DNA of 64,000 bases, taken from a virus (taxonomy: Duplodnaviria > Heunggongvirae > Uroviricota > Caudoviricetes). The translations under genes and the position numbers were made by a program. Below, piece after piece: positions 26,107-37,778 of the stretch; positions within the stretch are counted from its first letter, which is position 1, and every line of letters starts with the position of its first letter. The stretch is taken from IMG/VR virus record IMGVR_UViG_3300035659_000001; one strand, 5' to 3'. The notes under the pieces are model-generated. The model was not told the DNA's origin. It saw only the letters and a list, made by a program, of their open reading frames with translations, and ran no database searches.

Positions 26107-26334
26107 TCTACAATTAATGTAAATAAACGCCTCTGTCAGTCATAAAATTTTAACTATGATTGACATGTCAAAAATTTCAAATTTGTCTTATGTTAATAAT
26201 AATATTCGTAGAATTGTATCGCAAAAATCTATTTGTCGACAATTAGGTATTTGTGAGTATCTTTATAAAGGCGCGCTTTACCTATTTACGATCTTGTTTT
26301 TAACAAAACATATAAATATTATAATGACTGTCAA

Positions 26335-26793
26335 ATGATATCTCATGCTGTAAGATCTTCAAGAATAGTATTACCATTATTTGAACTTTCAACATATAAA
26401 GAAATAGATATAACAAATAAATATTGTGATGTTGATGAACAAATTGCTGGCGACATAATTGCTCAAGAGTGCGCATTATTATTAAAGCTATTAACTCATA
26501 ATACGATTATTAAACATGTACAACATAGTTTAATAGATTACAAGTTAATTTTGAACAATGATAATATGAGCAATTTATTTGAAGACGGTCATGTTATGAC
26601 AATTGATAATTTAGAATTGTTTCTTTTTACAATTAGACAAAATATTCAAGCTATACCGTGTGATGATCCTTACAATCTAAAAAAAGGATTTGCTTGTAAT
26701 GAAGTTGTTGGAATGATTATGAATGATGATGTAGAAATTAATATGTCTATGGGACATAGAATAAATAAATTTGAAATTTTAATGGGAGTGTAA
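26335..26793 (+). CDS. putative truncated major-capsid-protein paralogue (P-domain-like)
   Basis: RIVLPLFELS..EI.I, I.AQE..LL.LL, IRQNI...DDP....GF..NE..G resemble recalled huge-phage HK97-fold MCP segments. Confidence 0.45.
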   Translation: MISHAVRSSRIVLPLFELSTYKEIDITNKYCDVDEQIAGDIIAQECALLLKLLTHNTIIKHVQHSLIDYKLILNNDNMSNLFEDGHVMTIDNLELFLFTIRQNIQAIPCDDPYNLKKGFACNEVVGMIMNDDVEINMSMGHRINKFEILMGV

Positions 26794-26794
26794 A

Positions 26795-27520
26795 ATGAAA
26801 ATAATGGGAGTTGATATCTCGTCGAGGTCCTCGGGCTGGTCGATTATTGAAAATGACAAATTACTTGAGTATGGATTAATTGTGCCGCAAAGTAAATCTA
26901 TGACTAATGCACAAAAAATGTATTTGTTCCAGGTTGAATTACGTAAAATTATTGATGCAAAACAACCTGATGAAATTGCAATTGAAGACGTTATTCAAGT
27001 AAGAAGTATAAGTGTTCTCAAATTACTTGCAAGATTCAATGGAATTGCAATAATTGAGTCATATAGATATACACAAAAAGAGCCTGATCTGTATGAACCG
27101 TCAAAATGGAAATCGATAATGGGCTGTGGCGGAGGAGCAAAGAAGTGCGAAGTACAATTGTTTATATGTCAGAAATACAATTTATTGTTACTTGAAAAAA
27201 TTGCAACTTATCAAAAAAGAATTGATGAAGCAAAAGAATGTTTTGGTGGTTGTTGTGATGATGTACGTAAACAAGTAAAATTAGTAAAAAAAGAATTAAA
27301 GAAATGTAAAGATGAAAATAGGAAATTACAAATTGTTCAAGAAATAAAATCTTTACAAGAAAAATTTGTTAGTGTTAAAAAAAGTAGTAAAAAAAATACT
27401 TCTGAAGTTTTTGATAAAATAAGTATGGACATTTATACTGCTACAGGTATCAATGAGGACATTGCAGATTCACTCGGTGTTGCTATTTGCCATCAAAAGT
27501 TAAAAGAAAGAAATAAATGA
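26795..27520 (+). CDS. RuvC-like Holliday junction resolvase with coiled-coil insert
   Basis: IMGVDIS..SSGW, IAIED, P..WK..MG.G.A.K, EDIADSLGVA. Confidence 0.85.
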   Translation: MKIMGVDISSRSSGWSIIENDKLLEYGLIVPQSKSMTNAQKMYLFQVELRKIIDAKQPDEIAIEDVIQVRSISVLKLLARFNGIAIIESYRYTQKEPDLYEPSKWKSIMGCGGGAKKCEVQLFICQKYNLLLLEKIATYQKRIDEAKECFGGCCDDVRKQVKLVKKELKKCKDENRKLQIVQEIKSLQEKFVSVKKSSKKNTSEVFDKISMDIYTATGINEDIADSLGVAICHQKLKERNK

Positions 27521-27888
27521 GTAATGAAAAATTTAAATTAATTACAGGTTCATTATTAAAAGTAAATGATAAGCCAGTTAAGCATGTTCAAAAGAAACAA
27601 TGTCAGTCAAAATTTTTGATATTAGCAGGTAATAAGTTAAAGTTACAAAAAGAAAATAAAACTAAGAAGTTAACACAAAAACAAAAAGAATTATTAATAG
27701 CAGAGTTGTTACAAACATCTGAAGGTCGTCAAAGACTAGCTGAATCATTAATACAACCACTTAGATTACGTAGAGATTACACAAGCTTTGCTCGAAATGC
27801 ATTTACGGTTCAATCTCTTCCTGAAGGTGCAATTCATGTTTTTGATAATTCTTCAGCTCTTTCTTCAAGCGATTTAAGTTCTAGTTAA
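27517..27888 (+). CDS. protein carrying a major-capsid N-arm-like segment
   Basis: LQTSEGRQRLAESLIQPLRLRRDYTSFARNAFTVQSLPEGA..VFD resembles the recalled N-terminus of a huge-phage MCP. Confidence 0.5.
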   Translation: MSNEKFKLITGSLLKVNDKPVKHVQKKQCQSKFLILAGNKLKLQKENKTKKLTQKQKELLIAELLQTSEGRQRLAESLIQPLRLRRDYTSFARNAFTVQSLPEGAIHVFDNSSALSSSDLSSS

Positions 27889-28352: not shown

Positions 28353-31300
28353 ATGAATTTAAATAAATTCAAAGTTGTTTCGCAAGGGCAGCAAAAATCA
28401 ACAATTCTTAGAACAAAAATTGCATACGAAAATTGGGAAAGCAAATACAGATATAATAATGAGACGCCTGTCGGTACAGCTGTTAGATGTGCAAAGACAT
28501 TAGCTTCTATTGAAAAAGAACCTGAAAAATGGTATAAGTTATTTTTACAGACATTATTGAAATTTGATGGTGATATTGAAATTGATGAGAATGGTTTTCC
28601 AAATAAAGAGCCTTTAGGTTTTAAAGCTACACTTGGTGGAAGAATTACTGCAAACATCGGCACATCCTATAAAAATGCTACATTAATGAACTGTTTTATA
28701 AACGGACCTGTTTCTGGCGCTACAATTTCTTATAATAGAAAATCAGAGGATGATTCAATATCTTATAATGTTAGTATGAAAACTGATGATAATCCTGATG
28801 ATTTGTCTAATATCTTTTTAACTATATTAGAGCAAGCGAAAACTTTAGCATCTGAAGGTGGTTATGGAATCAATTTTGGATTTATTAGACCTAGAGGATC
28901 TATAATAAAGGGCACTGGAATTAAACATCCGGGTATTGTTTCATATATGAAAGTTTGGGATGCAGTTTCAGATTTAATTGTCAAAGGAGATGAAGACGGA
29001 TACATTGATAAACTTAAAAATCATTTAGATGAATCACAAATAAAAGACTTGACAATCATTACAAAAGCAATGGCTAGAAAAGGTGCGATGCTCGCAGCGT
29101 TGCCTGTATCTAGTCCAGACATTGAAGAGTTTATTCGTGCAAAACAAGTAAAAGGTGTATTAACTAAATTTAATATCTCTGTTTTGATAGATGATAAATT
29201 CATGAACGCGGTTATTTATGATGATTTTTATGATTTGCATTTTAAAGGCAAGACATATAAACGTGTAAAAGCTGTCGAATTATATGATCTTATTATGACG
29301 TCAGTTTATAATAGAGCTGAACCTGGTGCATTATTTTATGACAATATGCATAAGAGTAATCCAGTAGCTTATTTAGGTCATTGTGATTCTACAAATCCAT
29401 GTATTATTGGTAAATCTAGACTTGCAACTATTAAAGGATTAATGTCAATTGAAGCATTAGCTAGAAATGGTAAAGATGTCGAACTATTTTCTTATAATAA
29501 AAATAATAATGAGTATGAAATAAAAATTGGTAGAAATCCTAGAAAAACTGGTGAAAGAAAAATAGTATGGAAATTGACGTTTAAAGATGGGTCATGTTTT
29601 GTTGCGACGCCTACTCATGAAATATATTTACAAAATGGTGAGATAAAGCAATTACAGTTACTAGTTACTGGTGATAAAATTTGTACATTTGATTCTTTTA
29701 AGCCGTTTGAAGTTGATTGTGTGGCATATTATGGGCTTGAAGATGTGTATAATATAACAGTAGATGATAATTATAATTATATAGTAATAACTGATGGTGA
29801 TAAAAAAATTGAATCAAGTGGGATTGTTGTAAAAAATTGCGGTGAAGTTCCTGGTCTATCGTCTATAACAACTGTTTGTTTATTAGGTTCATTAAATTTG
29901 ACGCAATATGTTTTTATAGAAAATGATAGTGTAGGTTTTAATTGGGAAGAGTATATTAAAGATATATCTATTTTTGCAAGAATGCTTGATAATGTTAATG
30001 ATATTGCAAATGCACCGTTACCATCATACGAATATGTTGTTAAGAAAATGAGGCAATTCGGCATGGGCATTAGTGGTCTTGGATCAACATTAATGATGTT
30101 GGGGATGCCGTATAATTCTAAACAAGCTTTGGAATTTACAAAACAAGTTTGCGAATTAAAAGAGAATCATGTATGGCAAGCGTCTGCAATGTTAGCTAAA
30201 GAAAAAGGAACGTTTGAGGCATACAATGCTGAAAAATTTCAGAATACTGATTATTTTAAATCTGATAGATTATGGGACAAGACAAAGTTGATGATCAAAG
30301 CTTATGGTGTCCGTAATTGTAAGTCTACGACAGCTCCGCCGCTCGGAAACTCATCTATGATTTGTGATAATGTGTCAAATGGAATTGAGCCTGTGTTTTT
30401 GTTAGAGTATGAGAGAAAAGTTATATGTAAATGGCCTGAAGGATTAACAACTGAAAATGTTAAAGATGTGTTAAAGTATCATAAAAAGGCAGATTTTGAA
30501 TATTGGCGTGGTGAATACAGTGGTGCTGAATATTATTATGAGCCGCATAATAGAGGTTTATGTGAAATAAGTGTTGTTAGAGATTATGGTTATCAGTGGT
30601 TATTGGATAATTTTCCTAAAAAAGATCATTCACAGTATCTTACAACTACAAAAGATTTGTCGATACATGATCATATTGCAATTCAAAAAGTTGTGCAATA
30701 TTATTGTAATCAATCAGTTTCAAAAACATGTAATGTTCCAAAAGATTATTCATTTGAGGATTTCAAAAAATTATATATTAATGCATGGTTAAATGGTCTA
30801 GTTGGTTTTACAGCTTATAGAGATGATTGTATGGAGTCTGTTATTTCAAGTTTTGAAAAAACACTTGAAAAAGAAACTATTATTAAAAAAGATATCAAGT
30901 TACCTGAAATATTTATTAATGGTCCTACAAGAATTATTAAACGTGAGGGTATAAAATTTTATATTCATTTTAGTTATTTGCCTGAAGACACTGAGATGAA
31001 ATTTCCTATTTGTTTGTGGCTTTATAGTAATAGTAGAGAATTTGGGCAAACAAAAATATGTAATCGAGCATCAAGAAAATTAGCACATTTAGCATTAGAA
31101 AAAGGAATTGACTCTAATTTAATTGTACAATGTGTTAGTAAAGCTCAAAAAGACTATTCTTATAATAGACTTGGTAGAATGGTATCTTTATGTTTACGAC
31201 ATAATGTTAAGCGTGAAGATATTTTAATTGCGTTAGTTGGAATTGAAGGAGATTACATTTCCTCTTTATTAACTGCTGTTAGAAAATTTATTGCTTTAAC

Positions 31301-31418
31301 TTTGAAAGACGGAACTCATATTAAATTAAAATGTGGAAGTTGTGGAAGTACAAACACAATTATAGAGAGCGGCTGCACGAAATGCGTAGATTGTGGGTCG
31401 CAAGCATGCGGAGGTTAA
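28353..31418 (+). CDS. nrdJ: class II (adenosylcobalamin-dependent) ribonucleotide reductase, intein-containing
   Basis: GGRI.AN, TLMNCF, GGYG.N, R.GAM, FNISV, AEPG, NP[intein]CGE, CLLGSLNL, TAPP.G, SNGIEP, SVSKTCN, C-terminal zinc ribbon. Confidence 0.92.
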   Translation: MNLNKFKVVSQGQQKSTILRTKIAYENWESKYRYNNETPVGTAVRCAKTLASIEKEPEKWYKLFLQTLLKFDGDIEIDENGFPNKEPLGFKATLGGRITANIGTSYKNATLMNCFINGPVSGATISYNRKSEDDSISYNVSMKTDDNPDDLSNIFLTILEQAKTLASEGGYGINFGFIRPRGSIIKGTGIKHPGIVSYMKVWDAVSDLIVKGDEDGYIDKLKNHLDESQIKDLTIITKAMARKGAMLAALPVSSPDIEEFIRAKQVKGVLTKFNISVLIDDKFMNAVIYDDFYDLHFKGKTYKRVKAVELYDLIMTSVYNRAEPGALFYDNMHKSNPVAYLGHCDSTNPCIIGKSRLATIKGLMSIEALARNGKDVELFSYNKNNNEYEIKIGRNPRKTGERKIVWKLTFKDGSCFVATPTHEIYLQNGEIKQLQLLVTGDKICTFDSFKPFEVDCVAYYGLEDVYNITVDDNYNYIVITDGDKKIESSGIVVKNCGEVPGLSSITTVCLLGSLNLTQYVFIENDSVGFNWEEYIKDISIFARMLDNVNDIANAPLPSYEYVVKKMRQFGMGISGLGSTLMMLGMPYNSKQALEFTKQVCELKENHVWQASAMLAKEKGTFEAYNAEKFQNTDYFKSDRLWDKTKLMIKAYGVRNCKSTTAPPLGNSSMICDNVSNGIEPVFLLEYERKVICKWPEGLTTENVKDVLKYHKKADFEYWRGEYSGAEYYYEPHNRGLCEISVVRDYGYQWLLDNFPKKDHSQYLTTTKDLSIHDHIAIQKVVQYYCNQSVSKTCNVPKDYSFEDFKKLYINAWLNGLVGFTAYRDDCMESVISSFEKTLEKETIIKKDIKLPEIFINGPTRIIKREGIKFYIHFSYLPEDTEMKFPICLWLYSNSREFGQTKICNRASRKLAHLALEKGIDSNLIVQCVSKAQKDYSYNRLGRMVSLCLRHNVKREDILIALVGIEGDYISSLLTAVRKFIALTLKDGTHIKLKCGSCGSTNTIIESGCTKCVDCGSQACGG
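29400..29837 (+). mobile_element. 146-aa mini-intein in the RNR active-site motif
   Basis: CIIGKSRLAT...ATPTH (block B)...EDVYNITV..GIVVKN/C; no room for an endonuclease domain. Confidence 0.9.
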
Positions 31419-32494
31419 AAGTTGTGGTTGAATGCAAAATTTGTAACAAAACTTATAAAAGCAATGTATCTGGAGTATTAACTAACCATGTTCTTAATGT
31501 TCATAATATGACGTTGCAAGATTATATAGTAGTATTTGAATACAAGAATATTGAACCCAAATGCGAGTGCGGATGTGGTAACAGACCAGTTTTTAGACGA
31601 AGTAAATTTCTTAAATATGCTGAAGGTCACAAAACAGTTAATAATTTTAAAGAACAATATATTAAATCTTTTGGTGAGCCTAAATGTTTAAATTGTGGTA
31701 AATTATTAAAATTTAAAAGAAAAAGAAGAAAAGTTGCAAAATTTTGTTCTCATAAATGTGTTGGAGCATTCAATAAACAAATAATAATTGATAAAATGAG
31801 ACCTAAAATAATTGAAAAATGGAAAGAAAAAGATTATAGAAAATTAAAAGTACAACAAGCAAAAGAAATGTGGAAAATTGAGGGATTTGCAGAAAACATT
31901 AAAAATAAACGGAAGATAAGATTTCAAAATACAGATTATAAAACACAATATATACAAAAACATAAAGATTGTTGTACTACTGAAGTAAAACAGAAAATTA
32001 GTAATACTTTAAAAGTTATTCTTAAAAATACTAAATATAAAAAATTTAGAAGTGATTATTTAAAACAACAGTGGCAAAATAAAGAATATGTTGACAAGTT
32101 AATGAATAGCTTAAAATTAACATTAAAAAATAGATTATCAAAGCTTCATGTTAAAATAAGAACTGAACTAAATTTAGATAAATATGGCTTTCAATCGGAA
32201 CAACACATTAATAGATATATAGTTGACGAAATAAATAAAGAAAAAAAAATAATAATTGAAATAAATGGTAATTATGTGCATGCAAATCCAAGACTTTTTA
32301 AAGAAAATGATATTATCAGATTGCCGTCGCAACAATACACTGCTCAGCAAAAATGGAAAAAAGATAATGAAAAAATAAATAATTTAAAACAAATGGGTTT
32401 TAGAGTATTAGTCATTTGGCAATATGATTTTTTTAATAATTTGCAAGATGTTAAAAACAAGCTTAATAGCTTAATAGATGATAGTCATTTGTAA
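31331..32494 (+). CDS. free-standing homing endonuclease (zinc fingers + Vsr/DUF559-like PD-(D/E)XK domain)
   Basis: CKIC..H, CECGCG, CSHKC; VDE...IIEINGNYVHANP...GFRVLVIW; real start probably ~31420. Confidence 0.78.
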   Translation: MWKLWKYKHNYRERLHEMRRLWVASMRRLKVVVECKICNKTYKSNVSGVLTNHVLNVHNMTLQDYIVVFEYKNIEPKCECGCGNRPVFRRSKFLKYAEGHKTVNNFKEQYIKSFGEPKCLNCGKLLKFKRKRRKVAKFCSHKCVGAFNKQIIIDKMRPKIIEKWKEKDYRKLKVQQAKEMWKIEGFAENIKNKRKIRFQNTDYKTQYIQKHKDCCTTEVKQKISNTLKVILKNTKYKKFRSDYLKQQWQNKEYVDKLMNSLKLTLKNRLSKLHVKIRTELNLDKYGFQSEQHINRYIVDEINKEKKIIIEINGNYVHANPRLFKENDIIRLPSQQYTAQQKWKKDNEKINNLKQMGFRVLVIWQYDFFNNLQDVKNKLNSLIDDSHL

Positions 32495-34978: not shown

Positions 34979-36198
34979 ACAAATACCTTAAAATAGGTGA
35001 TAAACTCAGAATGTCTACAAAACTAATAATTGCGTCAGATCTTCATATCGGAGAATATGCTTTTGGCAAAATTGATCCAGAAACAGGACTTAATACTCGC
35101 TTATTAGATTTCTTAGATAACTTTAATCAAGCAATCGATATTGCAATAACTAAAAAAGTTAATGCATTTATAATTGTTGGTGACATTTACAGAGTTAAAC
35201 ATCCCAGTTCTAAAATAAGAAAACAATTTGCTACTAAACTCACAAAAATCATTCAAGCGAATATCAAAGTAATACTAATAACTGGCAACCATGACATGAC
35301 AACTAGCTCAGACGGTGCTCATGCTATGTCTGAAATGGAAGAGTTGTCGCCTCTAATTGATCAATTAACTGTTGTGTCTTCACCGTCAATAATAGATATA
35401 GATAATACAAGATTATATTGTTTACCGTTTGTAAATAGAGGTGAGCAAGAACTATTGACGCCTGAAGATTTTTTAAAATTTCAAAAACAAAAAATTCAAG
35501 AGTTTAATGATGTTAATGATAATGATTATTACTCTATATTTTTTGGTCATTTTGGAACTGATAAATCAGAAGTTGGTAATAGCTTTGATTTAGACATGTC
35601 GTCTAATGAATTTGAAAACATGGTACAATTGTCAGATTTTGGAAAAAAATGGACAAAAATCTATCTTGGCCACATTCATAAACATCAAGAATTTAATAAT
35701 ATTGCGAGACATGTTGGATCAATTGGTAGAGTTGATTTTTCAGAAGAAGATGAGCAAAAAGGTTTTTATTTTTATGAAGATGGTTATGATGAATTTATAC
35801 CAATAAAAGATCGAGAATTTAAAACATTTCAATTAAATTTGAAAGATGAGCAATGTAAAGAGCAATTAAACAAGTTTTTTAAAGACATACAAAAAATTGA
35901 TTTGTCAAATTCAATCGTAAGAATAAAAACAAACGTTATACAGACATATTATCCTCTTGTAAAATTTGATAAAATTGAATCATATCTAAGAGCTAATTGC
36001 TGGCATTTTACTAATATAGATATTAATGTAATTGCAAAAGAAGATATTAATGAGAATGTTGAGAAGATAACTAGTACTGATTTACCAATTGAAGCTTTGA
36101 AAAAATATGTTGAAAAACATCCTGATAGATATAAAGGTATTGAAGAAAAAATGATTACTAAGGGTCGAGAAATTTTAACAATCGTGAAAAATAAATGA
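34975..36198 (+). CDS. SbcD/Mre11-like exonuclease subunit
   Basis: SDLHIG, VGDIY, TGNHD, GH, YLGHIHK, GS....FSE. Confidence 0.9.
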   Translation: MNKYLKIGDKLRMSTKLIIASDLHIGEYAFGKIDPETGLNTRLLDFLDNFNQAIDIAITKKVNAFIIVGDIYRVKHPSSKIRKQFATKLTKIIQANIKVILITGNHDMTTSSDGAHAMSEMEELSPLIDQLTVVSSPSIIDIDNTRLYCLPFVNRGEQELLTPEDFLKFQKQKIQEFNDVNDNDYYSIFFGHFGTDKSEVGNSFDLDMSSNEFENMVQLSDFGKKWTKIYLGHIHKHQEFNNIARHVGSIGRVDFSEEDEQKGFYFYEDGYDEFIPIKDREFKTFQLNLKDEQCKEQLNKFFKDIQKIDLSNSIVRIKTNVIQTYYPLVKFDKIESYLRANCWHFTNIDINVIAKEDINENVEKITSTDLPIEALKKYVEKHPDRYKGIEEKMITKGREILTIVKNK

Positions 36199-37778
36199 AA
36201 ATTGATTATGTAGAAAAACATACTATTTTTGAAACTATTGTCGGTAGTCAAGCTTACGGCATTGATACTCCTGAATCTGATATTGATAAAGCTGGTGTAA
36301 TGATACCAGATCAAGCATATTTTCTGGGTCTAAATAGATTTGAACAGTTTGACGATTATCCTGAAGAAGATAAAGTCATGTATGATATAAGAAAAGCTTT
36401 AAAACTTATAGCAGACAACAATCCAAACTGCTTAGATTTATTATGTTCGCCAGAGCGGTGTATAACGAAAATGACACCGTATTGGCAAGAAATTGTCGAA
36501 AATAAAGATTTATTTATATCTAAAAAAGCAAGATTTACTTTTTCGAGCTATGCAATTGCTCAATTAGAACGAATAAAAATGCATCGCAAGTTTTTATTAG
36601 CTCCGATAAAAAATAAACCTTTACGATCTGATTATGGATTGCCTGAACATTCATCATTTCCATCTGTGCAATTGAAATCTATAGTTCAAGCTACAATGCA
36701 TGACTTTTTAATGGAAGAACATAAAGAAGACTTTTTTCATGAATTAGACGGTATTTATGGTGATTATTTAATGCCATTGTTTGCAAAATTTTCAAAAGAA
36801 ACTCATAGAAATGTTGCAATGGAATGGATTCAAGAAACTCAAAAATCACAAATCAACACGCTATTGCATTTAGGACCTTCTTATATTAAAGAAGAATTCA
36901 TAGATTTAGCTGAAAAAGAGCTTAGATATTTTGTTGCAAATCAAGAATATGAACGTTATCAGCAATGGTCAAAGACACGAAACCCTAAAAGAGCTATTCT
37001 TGAAGCAAGATTCGGCTATGACACTAAACATGCCGGGCATCTTGTGCGCTTAATGAGAATGGGAGTTGAGATATTGCAGACTGGAAAAGTTAATGTTGAT
37101 CGAACACAAATTGATTCTGTTGAGTTGAAAGAGATTAAAAATGGTGCATGGTCGTATGAGCAACTAGAACAATATGCTAAAGATACAGATAATAAATTAA
37201 CTGATTTATATAATTCATGCAAATTACAAAAATCAGCTCAAATTGAAAAAATAAATGAATTATGTATAAAGATTGTAGATCAGTATTTATCTACAACAAA
37301 AAAGAAAATAAGAGACAAAACTATAACTACACTTGCTGCCGATTGTTTTGCTGGTTTAGAAGCACATGATACTGTAGTTTCAAGACTTTACATAAGTAAC
37401 AATTTAATGACAAAAGATTTTTTGAAATACGCTAATGATTCATACGATAACCGTATATGGGGTGCAAATCTTCAAGTAATGAATGACGTTGAAAATACTA
37501 TAATTGTTAAGTCAGAATATAAGTGTGGTAGTTTTTCACAAACATCATTGTTTAATGATAATGAAATAATAGAACCTATACGTCATGGTGATAAAGATCC
37601 AACTTGTTCAGTTTGCAAAATTATTAAAAAATTAGGATTACAATCAAATGTGTCAACGAAAAAAGTAATTGAATTATTAGATTATGAACATTGCCCTCAT
37701 TGCTATGGTAGTTTTTCATTCTCAAAACCTGAAAATGCAATTTGTCCATTCTGTAAAAAGTCAATAATAGGAGAATAA
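36195..37778 (+). CDS. Pol-beta-superfamily nucleotidyltransferase (YcgL/RlaP type) with C-terminal extension
   Basis: VGSQAYG..TPESDID, NNPN, YDTKHA.HLVRL, L.EIK.G; extra ~160 aa ending in CxxC pairs. Confidence 0.87.
   Translation: MKIDYVEKHTIFETIVGSQAYGIDTPESDIDKAGVMIPDQAYFLGLNRFEQFDDYPEEDKVMYDIRKALKLIADNNPNCLDLLCSPERCITKMTPYWQEIVENKDLFISKKARFTFSSYAIAQLERIKMHRKFLLAPIKNKPLRSDYGLPEHSSFPSVQLKSIVQATMHDFLMEEHKEDFFHELDGIYGDYLMPLFAKFSKETHRNVAMEWIQETQKSQINTLLHLGPSYIKEEFIDLAEKELRYFVANQEYERYQQWSKTRNPKRAILEARFGYDTKHAGHLVRLMRMGVEILQTGKVNVDRTQIDSVELKEIKNGAWSYEQLEQYAKDTDNKLTDLYNSCKLQKSAQIEKINELCIKIVDQYLSTTKKKIRDKTITTLAADCFAGLEAHDTVVSRLYISNNLMTKDFLKYANDSYDNRIWGANLQVMNDVENTIIVKSEYKCGSFSQTSLFNDNEIIEPIRHGDKDPTCSVCKIIKKLGLQSNVSTKKVIELLDYEHCPHCYGSFSFSKPENAICPFCKKSIIGE

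Follow-up and report, generated by a model that had tools for sequence, protein, structure and literature searches.

A predicted capsid N-arm copy and a reduced capsid-protein paralog beside a RuvC-type resolvase gene of a huge phage

Introduction

Why would a huge phage keep pieces of a major capsid protein (MCP) on either side of a gene for DNA repair? The question is raised by the IMG/VR virus record IMGVR_UViG_3300035659_000001 (Caudoviricetes), of which we analysed a stretch of 64,000 nucleotides, called the window here, consisting of low-GC huge-phage DNA with about 29% G+C. Positions 26335-27888 hold three tightly packed open reading frames (ORFs) on the plus strand, namely ORF A, a gene for a RuvC-type Holliday-junction resolvase (RuvC) and ORF B (gene B). 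An earlier note on this DNA had remarked that two short ORFs flank RuvC, as they do (26335-26793 and 27517-27888 around 26795-27520), and had taken both for stand-alone fragments of an MCP that might serve as capsid decoys, as modulators of assembly or as inhibitors of competing phages.

Capsid proteins are major triggers of bacterial immunity, and capsid interfaces drive head assembly. Gene B appears to be a free-standing copy of the capsid interface that is conserved best; it is under selection, bears a tag and is coupled to a resolvase. At 123 aa it offers a small object on which to test whether huge phages turn parts of their own shell protein into regulators, adaptors or decoys.

Results

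Gene B and the MCP N-arm

Gene B matched the family phrog_2522, annotated 'major head protein', with E=1.8e-10, and hhalign of the B family against an alignment of the MCP family gave 99.2% and E=1e-19, which bears out the resemblance to an MCP N-arm that had been noted for 27517-27888. BLASTP aligned B with residues 7-63 of the Tunturi_5 MCP at 48% identity (E=4e-14). A tblastn search with B returned the MCPs of Tunturiibacter phage Tunturi_5, Bacillus phage G and an uncultured 485-kb phage, and the MCP family matched is the one solved as phage G gp27 (PDB 6WKK). Among the 1141 stop-to-stop frames of the window, B and A were the two best matches to an MCP hidden Markov model (HMM) built during this work. 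The features of the locus are as follows.

26156-26793, plus strand: gene A', predicted reduced phage-G-type MCP paralog, frameshifted in the window
26156-26338, plus strand: upstream remnant ORF, 60 aa; codons 1-39 belong to native A' and the rest is out of frame
26273-26274, plus strand: GC insertion of 2 nt (GGCGCGC in the window, GGCGC in intact alleles)
26335-26793, plus strand: ORF A, 152 aa, downstream remnant of A'
26767-26787, plus strand: motif KFEILMG at the C-terminus of A', beyond the end of MCP homology (regular-expression scan)
26795-27520, plus strand: RuvC-type Holliday-junction resolvase (PF02075, phrog_159) with a Lys-rich inserted segment
27517-27888, plus strand: gene B, 123 aa; two tag-like motifs, Lys-rich linker, predicted MCP N-arm, short Ser-rich tail
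27529-27630, plus strand: two N-terminal motifs of B, KFKLITG (27529-27549) and KFLILAG (27610-27630)
27670-27852, plus strand: N-arm homology segment, B residues 52-112, matching MCP residues 4-67 (hhalign) and positions 2-64 of the in-window HMM

The protein places a 50-residue Lys-rich segment ahead of the arm and stops 11 residues past it, so that it is incomplete relative to a full MCP, being without E-loop, P-domain, spine helix and A-domain. Its match to NCBIfam NF042927 (E=2e-8) covers profile positions 2-59 only and reaches 33.5 bits, against a curated cut-off of 80 bits. Within the arm, B retains nearly all residues that are invariant in true MCPs. Judged by its sequence, B carries the N-arm of an HK97 MCP of the phage G type.

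We compared the window lineage with the relative L002 to estimate the ratio of nonsynonymous to synonymous substitution (dN/dS), and all ratios given here come from that comparison. For B the ratio was 0.30 at a synonymous divergence (dS) of 0.57; RuvC gave 0.31, the downstream 118-aa ORF 0.13 and the ribonucleotide reductase (RNR) gene 0.11. B is under purifying selection and is maintained. Three orthologues of B were identified, and a search of IMG/VR for close relatives found none.

Gene A', a frameshifted relative

The frame of ORF A matched our MCP HMM with E=1e-9 in two collinear stretches (HMM positions 57-105 and 243-279). Relatives of ORF A proved rare: among 1.8 billion cluster representatives only a 208-aa and a 116-aa protein were found, and a word-index search added relatives of 208, 211 and 174 aa. 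An intact homologue (P0008; 208 aa as called by its source, 211 aa when read from the ATG at 26156) aligns without mismatch to the window frames 26156-26272 and 26275-26790, and itself matches phrog_2522 with E=1.3e-5. ORF A is thus not the designed stand-alone fragment it had been taken for; it is the tail of a frameshifted 208-aa gene, A', that starts at 26156 and evolves at a dN/dS of 0.70.

In DNA alignments the GC insertion at 26273-74 is present in the window and in L001 and absent from L005 and the diverged L002, and the window and L005 are identical over the aligned stretch apart from this insertion. The broken allele was found in at least four assemblies (the window, L001, SRR11721628 and SRR11721627) and the intact allele in two (L005 and SRR11719878), all from one sample series. 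The TGA of the upstream 60-aa remnant overlaps the ATG of ORF A (ATGA), and because of this overlap both pieces of A' might still be made.

We aligned intact A' to phage G gp27 by BLASTP and obtained two collinear segments, A' residues 21-92 with gp27 41-109 (E=4e-8) and 153-193 with 238-278 (E=1e-7). The A' family aligned to the MCP family by hhalign over 180 columns (95.7%, E=9e-9), columns 17-196 of A' corresponding to 36-287 of the MCP. Relative to MCPs, A' has five deletions, about 90 residues in all, that take away the first helices of the N-arm and two stretches each of the spine helix and the A-domain, and it gains a C-terminal extension. ORF A alone contains a P-domain strand, a shortened spine helix, a reduced A-domain, the C-terminal P-domain strands and the C-terminal extension. 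Sequence comparison thus assigns ORF A and A' an MCP origin; the proposal for 26335-26793 holds in this respect and fails in describing a fragment without N-arm or A-domain, since intact A' keeps the distal N-arm and a reduced A-domain. By hhalign, then, both flanking genes belong with the HK97-fold, phage-G-type MCP family, and neither ORF is complete enough to pass as an MCP, as the earlier note had held: B falls short of the NF042927 cut-off, and A' gave no match to that profile at E<=0.1, where the true MCP P0011 scored 148 bits. An AF2 model of A' had a mean predicted local distance difference test score of 37, and a true MCP modelled from a similarly shallow alignment reached only 40, so the model has no discriminating power.

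The dN/dS of A' was 1.3 in the N-terminal half and 0.49 in the C-terminal half (small counts); its evolution is almost neutral. A related lineage carries an intact A' (P0009) as well as an allele with a 95-aa in-frame deletion (P0007). From the overall ratio, the frameshift and the deletion alleles, A' is dispensable and probably decaying. That A' is the phage's real MCP was ruled out by the null alleles, the dN/dS of 0.70 and the missing residues.

With ORF A recognised as a frameshift remnant, the apparent order of C-piece, RuvC and N-piece becomes that of a reduced whole copy, RuvC and an N-arm-only copy. An MCP gene split by insertion of RuvC was ruled out on this order and because A' and B cover an overlapping MCP region. 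Recoding of stop codons was rejected both for joining B to the next ORF, from which two stops separate it, and for joining A to ORFs upstream, where many stops intervene. Protein trans-splicing of B was likewise ruled out, as the 11-residue Ser-rich tail leaves no room for an intein fragment.

The shared terminal motif

The two genes share a short terminal motif, [KR][FY]x[ILV][ILAV]xG, with two copies at the N-terminal end of B and a single one at the C-terminal end of A'. Elsewhere in the window it was found in one other ORF (54 aa) out of 281. The three copies in A' and B compare with 0.007 expected from shuffled sequences, for a pattern defined post hoc. The A' copy, KFEILMG, is kept in P0005, P0009, P0010 and P0007, and the motifs of B are kept in its orthologues. 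The motif resembles the tag of P0004 and of the L178 array, described below, and in our alignment A3 the second motif of B and the N-terminal tag of P0004 occupy the same columns.

Capsid pieces in other phages

P0004, a 204-aa protein on contigs of 442 and 590 kb, starts with M-S-R-Y-S-I-A-L-G-K-K-P-P and continues from this N-terminal tag into a basic linker, the arm, the E-loop, a P-strand and half of the spine helix. It is the first member of a tandem array of three tagged MCP paralogs of 204, 332 and 385 aa (L178:3914-6684), which begin with M-x-R-[FY]-x-I-A-L-G-K and end in a Gly-Gly-Arg-like tail. The two full-length tagged paralogs score 175 and 108 bits on NF042927, and some 29 kb away the same phage encodes an untagged MCP as well (L229). 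Over the arm, the identity of B to P0004 is 62%, as against 45-53% to the majority of true MCPs; the MCPs of phage G and Tunturi_5 lie lower, at 39-40%. A tree of the 62-residue arm did not resolve the branching, and a grouping of B with P0004 is only suggestive. Scanning IMG/VR with P0004 returned ordinary MCPs; three apparent N-terminal matches were inspected and are not tagged MCPs.

An 82-aa ORF in L242:106-2279, a locus of 56% GC, consists of a basic segment and the arm only. It lies directly upstream of a 585-aa protein that by eye looks like one of the TROVE/vWA type. B-type proteins share derived residues across phages whose loci have G+C contents of 43%, 56% and, in the window, about 29%.

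Additional ORFs with MCP pieces were present in two of the five IMG/VR huge-phage records searched: an arm within a 236-aa protein, a permuted 360-aa protein in which two MCP segments stand in swapped order, and a 155-aa A-domain piece. Two of these proteins, the 360-aa one among them, come from one 312-kb phage (L091:1216-1926, minus strand, and L093:754-1836, plus strand) and share an acidic ...EEDLF tail. No extra MCP pieces were found in phage G, and Tunturi_5 gave one weak match. Literature searches on capsid fragments, capsid paralogs and capsid decoys in huge phages turned up no account of genes of this kind. Keeping tagged MCP pieces outside the head module is apparently an undescribed habit of phage-G-type huge phages.

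True MCPs of this family are 73-91% identical across 12 aligned uncultured-phage sequences, with 544 relatives in the scan in total. In several huge phages from metagenomes the MCP gene itself is interrupted. An insertion of about 1.1 kb after approximately codon 32, between '...LAAS' and 'IQPLR...', was seen in L238:2771-4789, L237, L239, L241 and L243-L245, with a gene for a LAGLIDADG homing endonuclease inside it (PF03161, E=2e-19). The insertion is probably an intron; an Rfam search returned no family over threshold. At L246:3524-5398 a second N-arm insertion site, after '...DYLSVG', holds an ORF of about 326 aa that is LAGLIDADG-like by eye only. The arm-coding DNA of the MCP looks like a hot spot for homing elements.

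One more MCP-like stretch may lie further along the window.

37332-37490, plus strand: A-domain-like stretch, residues 380-432 of an RlaP-type nucleotidyltransferase; possible third MCP-like piece, weak

The C-terminal extension of this nucleotidyltransferase (36195-37778) matched the MCP P0011 by BLASTP with E=1e-4 and the in-window HMM with E=0.015, the third-best match in the window. It gave no match to phrog_2522 at E<=0.1.

The resolvase gene and its neighbours

A', RuvC and B form a tight operon-like block inside a nucleotide-metabolism and repair region of a huge phage. A single nucleotide separates the stop of A' from the start of RuvC, and the stop of RuvC overlaps the start of B as ATGA. 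All three lineages seen have the genes in the order A'-RuvC-B, the B orthologues P0002 and P0003 being syntenic, and a source index lists gene B on contigs of up to 262 kb. Neighbours with family matches are a PARP-like protein, a methyltransferase, an intein-bearing RNR, a dCTP-deaminase-like protein, the RlaP-type nucleotidyltransferase, an RNA ligase, a Nudix hydrolase and a transposase, to which the record of a relative adds a dUTPase. Family scans of the genes around the block found no MCP or other virion-family match, in line with the earlier observation that no virion genes are nearby. A scan for promoters and terminators gave counts no higher than in shuffled sequence.

RuvC matched PF02075 with 50.9 bits (E=2e-13), above the Pfam gathering score of 22.2, and scored under the NCBIfam equivalog cut-offs, which makes it a divergent phage RuvC-like enzyme. 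Its Lys-rich insertion, of about 90 residues, sits before the last catalytic motif. Between the window (26795-27520) and L002:816-1541 the RuvC proteins are only 50% identical (dS 1.4) while the flanking genes are 71-93% identical, a difference that suggests replacement of the RuvC allele or a mosaic junction. The RNR large subunit (28353-31418) has 1021 aa in the window and 875 aa in a related contig; the difference would fit an intein in the window copy. The next ORF after RNR, at 31331-32494, has a DUF559/Vsr-like endonuclease domain.

Discussion

The reading that we prefer, and hold only tentatively, is that B would be a tagged mimic of the N-arm, docking on the capsid protein or procapsid of its own phage, and A' a paralog in decay. 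Since residues invariant in the arms of true MCPs are retained, B may be argued to keep the binding interactions of the arm, and it is on this argument that docking on the phage's own capsid protein is preferred. The N-arm of B would take the site that normally receives the N-arm of an MCP, on the capsid protein, capsomers or procapsid of the phage, and the motif and basic segment would join B to a second partner. That partner may be the resolvase. T4 endonuclease VII (gp49), a Holliday-junction resolvase, binds the portal directly and clears branched DNA during packaging (PMC9958956, citing Golz and Kemper 1999). In combination with the translational coupling of B and RuvC, this portal-bound enzyme suggests that B may bring RuvC to heads that are packaging branched DNA. 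A' would most likely be a redundant, decaying paralog of the same kind.

Several points weigh against this reading. P0004, the L242 ORF and the L091 ORF do not adjoin RuvC, so tethering of the resolvase rests only on synteny in one narrow clade. The MCPs compared with B come from other phages, the phage's own MCP not being in the set, and the motif pattern was defined after the sequences had been viewed. Finally, a mimic that binds MCP could equally poison assembly.

A different role, which we consider unlikely, is that of an immune decoy or antagonist. B, and intact A', would display conserved MCP surfaces early in infection and occupy host sensors of monomeric capsid protein, of the CapRel, Avs7/Dsr1 or Lit type, without activating them. 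Such sensing is real: CapRel is a capsid-sensing immune system triggered by MCP (PMC9712102), Avs7/Dsr1 is an MCP-sensing immunity (bioRxiv 10.64898/2026.01.04.697583), both reading conserved HK97 surfaces, and the Gol peptide of T4 gp23 acts with Lit and EF-Tu (PMC3014915). The stretch that the pieces copy is the best-conserved one of the MCP, and they are encoded among replication genes, not late genes; the recurring loss alleles of A' and its fast evolution would suit a gene in an arms race. However, binding of MCP or of its peptide switches the known sensors on, so that a fragment could trigger them instead of blocking them, and Avs7 envelops the P-domain, A-domain and E-loop, which B is without (bioRxiv 10.64898/2026.01.04.697583). 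No phage-encoded MCP decoy was found in that study or in our literature searches.

We regard it as improbable that both ORFs are non-functional debris, left by partial MCP duplications through, for example, illegitimate recombination or homing-endonuclease activity at the N-arm. The MCP N-arm DNA does appear recombination-prone, given the LAGLIDADG endonuclease insertions at two sites in other phages, and A' has a dN/dS of 0.70, a frameshift allele and the 95-aa in-frame deletion allele P0007. As a description, debris suits A' well but does not suit B, which has an open frame, the MCP-invariant residues and a dN/dS of 0.30 at dS 0.57, while B-type proteins share derived residues across phages of 43%, 56% and about 29% G+C, and the terminal motif is conserved.

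It is more doubtful still that the pieces serve as a weapon, co-assembling with the MCP of co-infecting related huge phages and poisoning it. With MCPs 73-91% identical (12 aligned; 544 relatives), one mimic could hit many competitors, but the same conservation means that the phage's own MCP would probably be poisoned too. Finally, an ectopic N-arm beside a resolvase might act at the level of DNA, as a diverged repair template after a homing-endonuclease cut in the MCP N-arm, which we consider very improbable: the MCPs of other phages are indeed split by endonuclease-bearing insertions at two places in the N-arm, and B spans both places uninterrupted and adjoins RuvC, but selection acts on the protein, B is only about 50% identical to MCP N-arms and gene conversion would rewrite the arm, and the tags and basic linker would be left without a role.

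Extending the reading of B as an N-arm mimic to its relatives is more speculative. B-type proteins could be a conserved class of capsid-interface mimics in huge phages, composed of a portable tag and an N-arm, that either antagonise host capsid sensors or dock enzymes, here RuvC, on assembling heads. If this is true, a capsid-protein fragment would in either role be put to a use not described before. Capsid pieces also turn over, and A', caught mid-decay with intact and broken alleles in one sample series, helps to tell selected pieces from debris.

The source family of both genes is that of phage G gp27 (PDB 6WKK; NF042927 capsid_Caudo_2; PHROG 2522), B corresponding to residues 4-67 and A' being collinear with about 36-287. 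Unlike gp27, B is an arm only, A' is about 90 residues short and dispensable, and both score under the family cut-off, are encoded away from the head module and have additional motifs at their termini. The tagged MCP paralogs (P0004 and the next two ORFs of L178), like B, combine an N-terminal tag, in their case of the pattern M-x-R-[FY]-x-I-A-L-G-K, with a basic linker and a part resembling an MCP; the tag of B, in contrast, is diverged, duplicated and not at the very start, and that of A' is C-terminal. Proteins that derive from an MCP and act through capsid interfaces include the T4 vertex protein gp24 and the MCP homologues with which phage-inducible chromosomal islands redirect capsid size. 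These are full HK97 folds that are built into shells, which B cannot be, whereas A' is truncated and dispensable.

Short portable terminal peptides that occur in several proteins are known from the capsid-targeting sequence of T4 internal proteins (PMC3012670). The motif described here has no sequence similarity to it and, in the window, is found only on the two MCP-derived genes and one 54-aa ORF. With T4 gp49 the locus would share a resolvase tied to the head, but the T4 enzyme binds the portal directly, whereas an adaptor function for B is inferred from operon structure. CapRel, Avs7/Dsr1 and Lit, unlike the genes described here, are host systems triggered by MCP, and Gol comes from a different MCP family; what they have in common with the present case is that a piece or a monomer of an MCP is a meaningful ligand.

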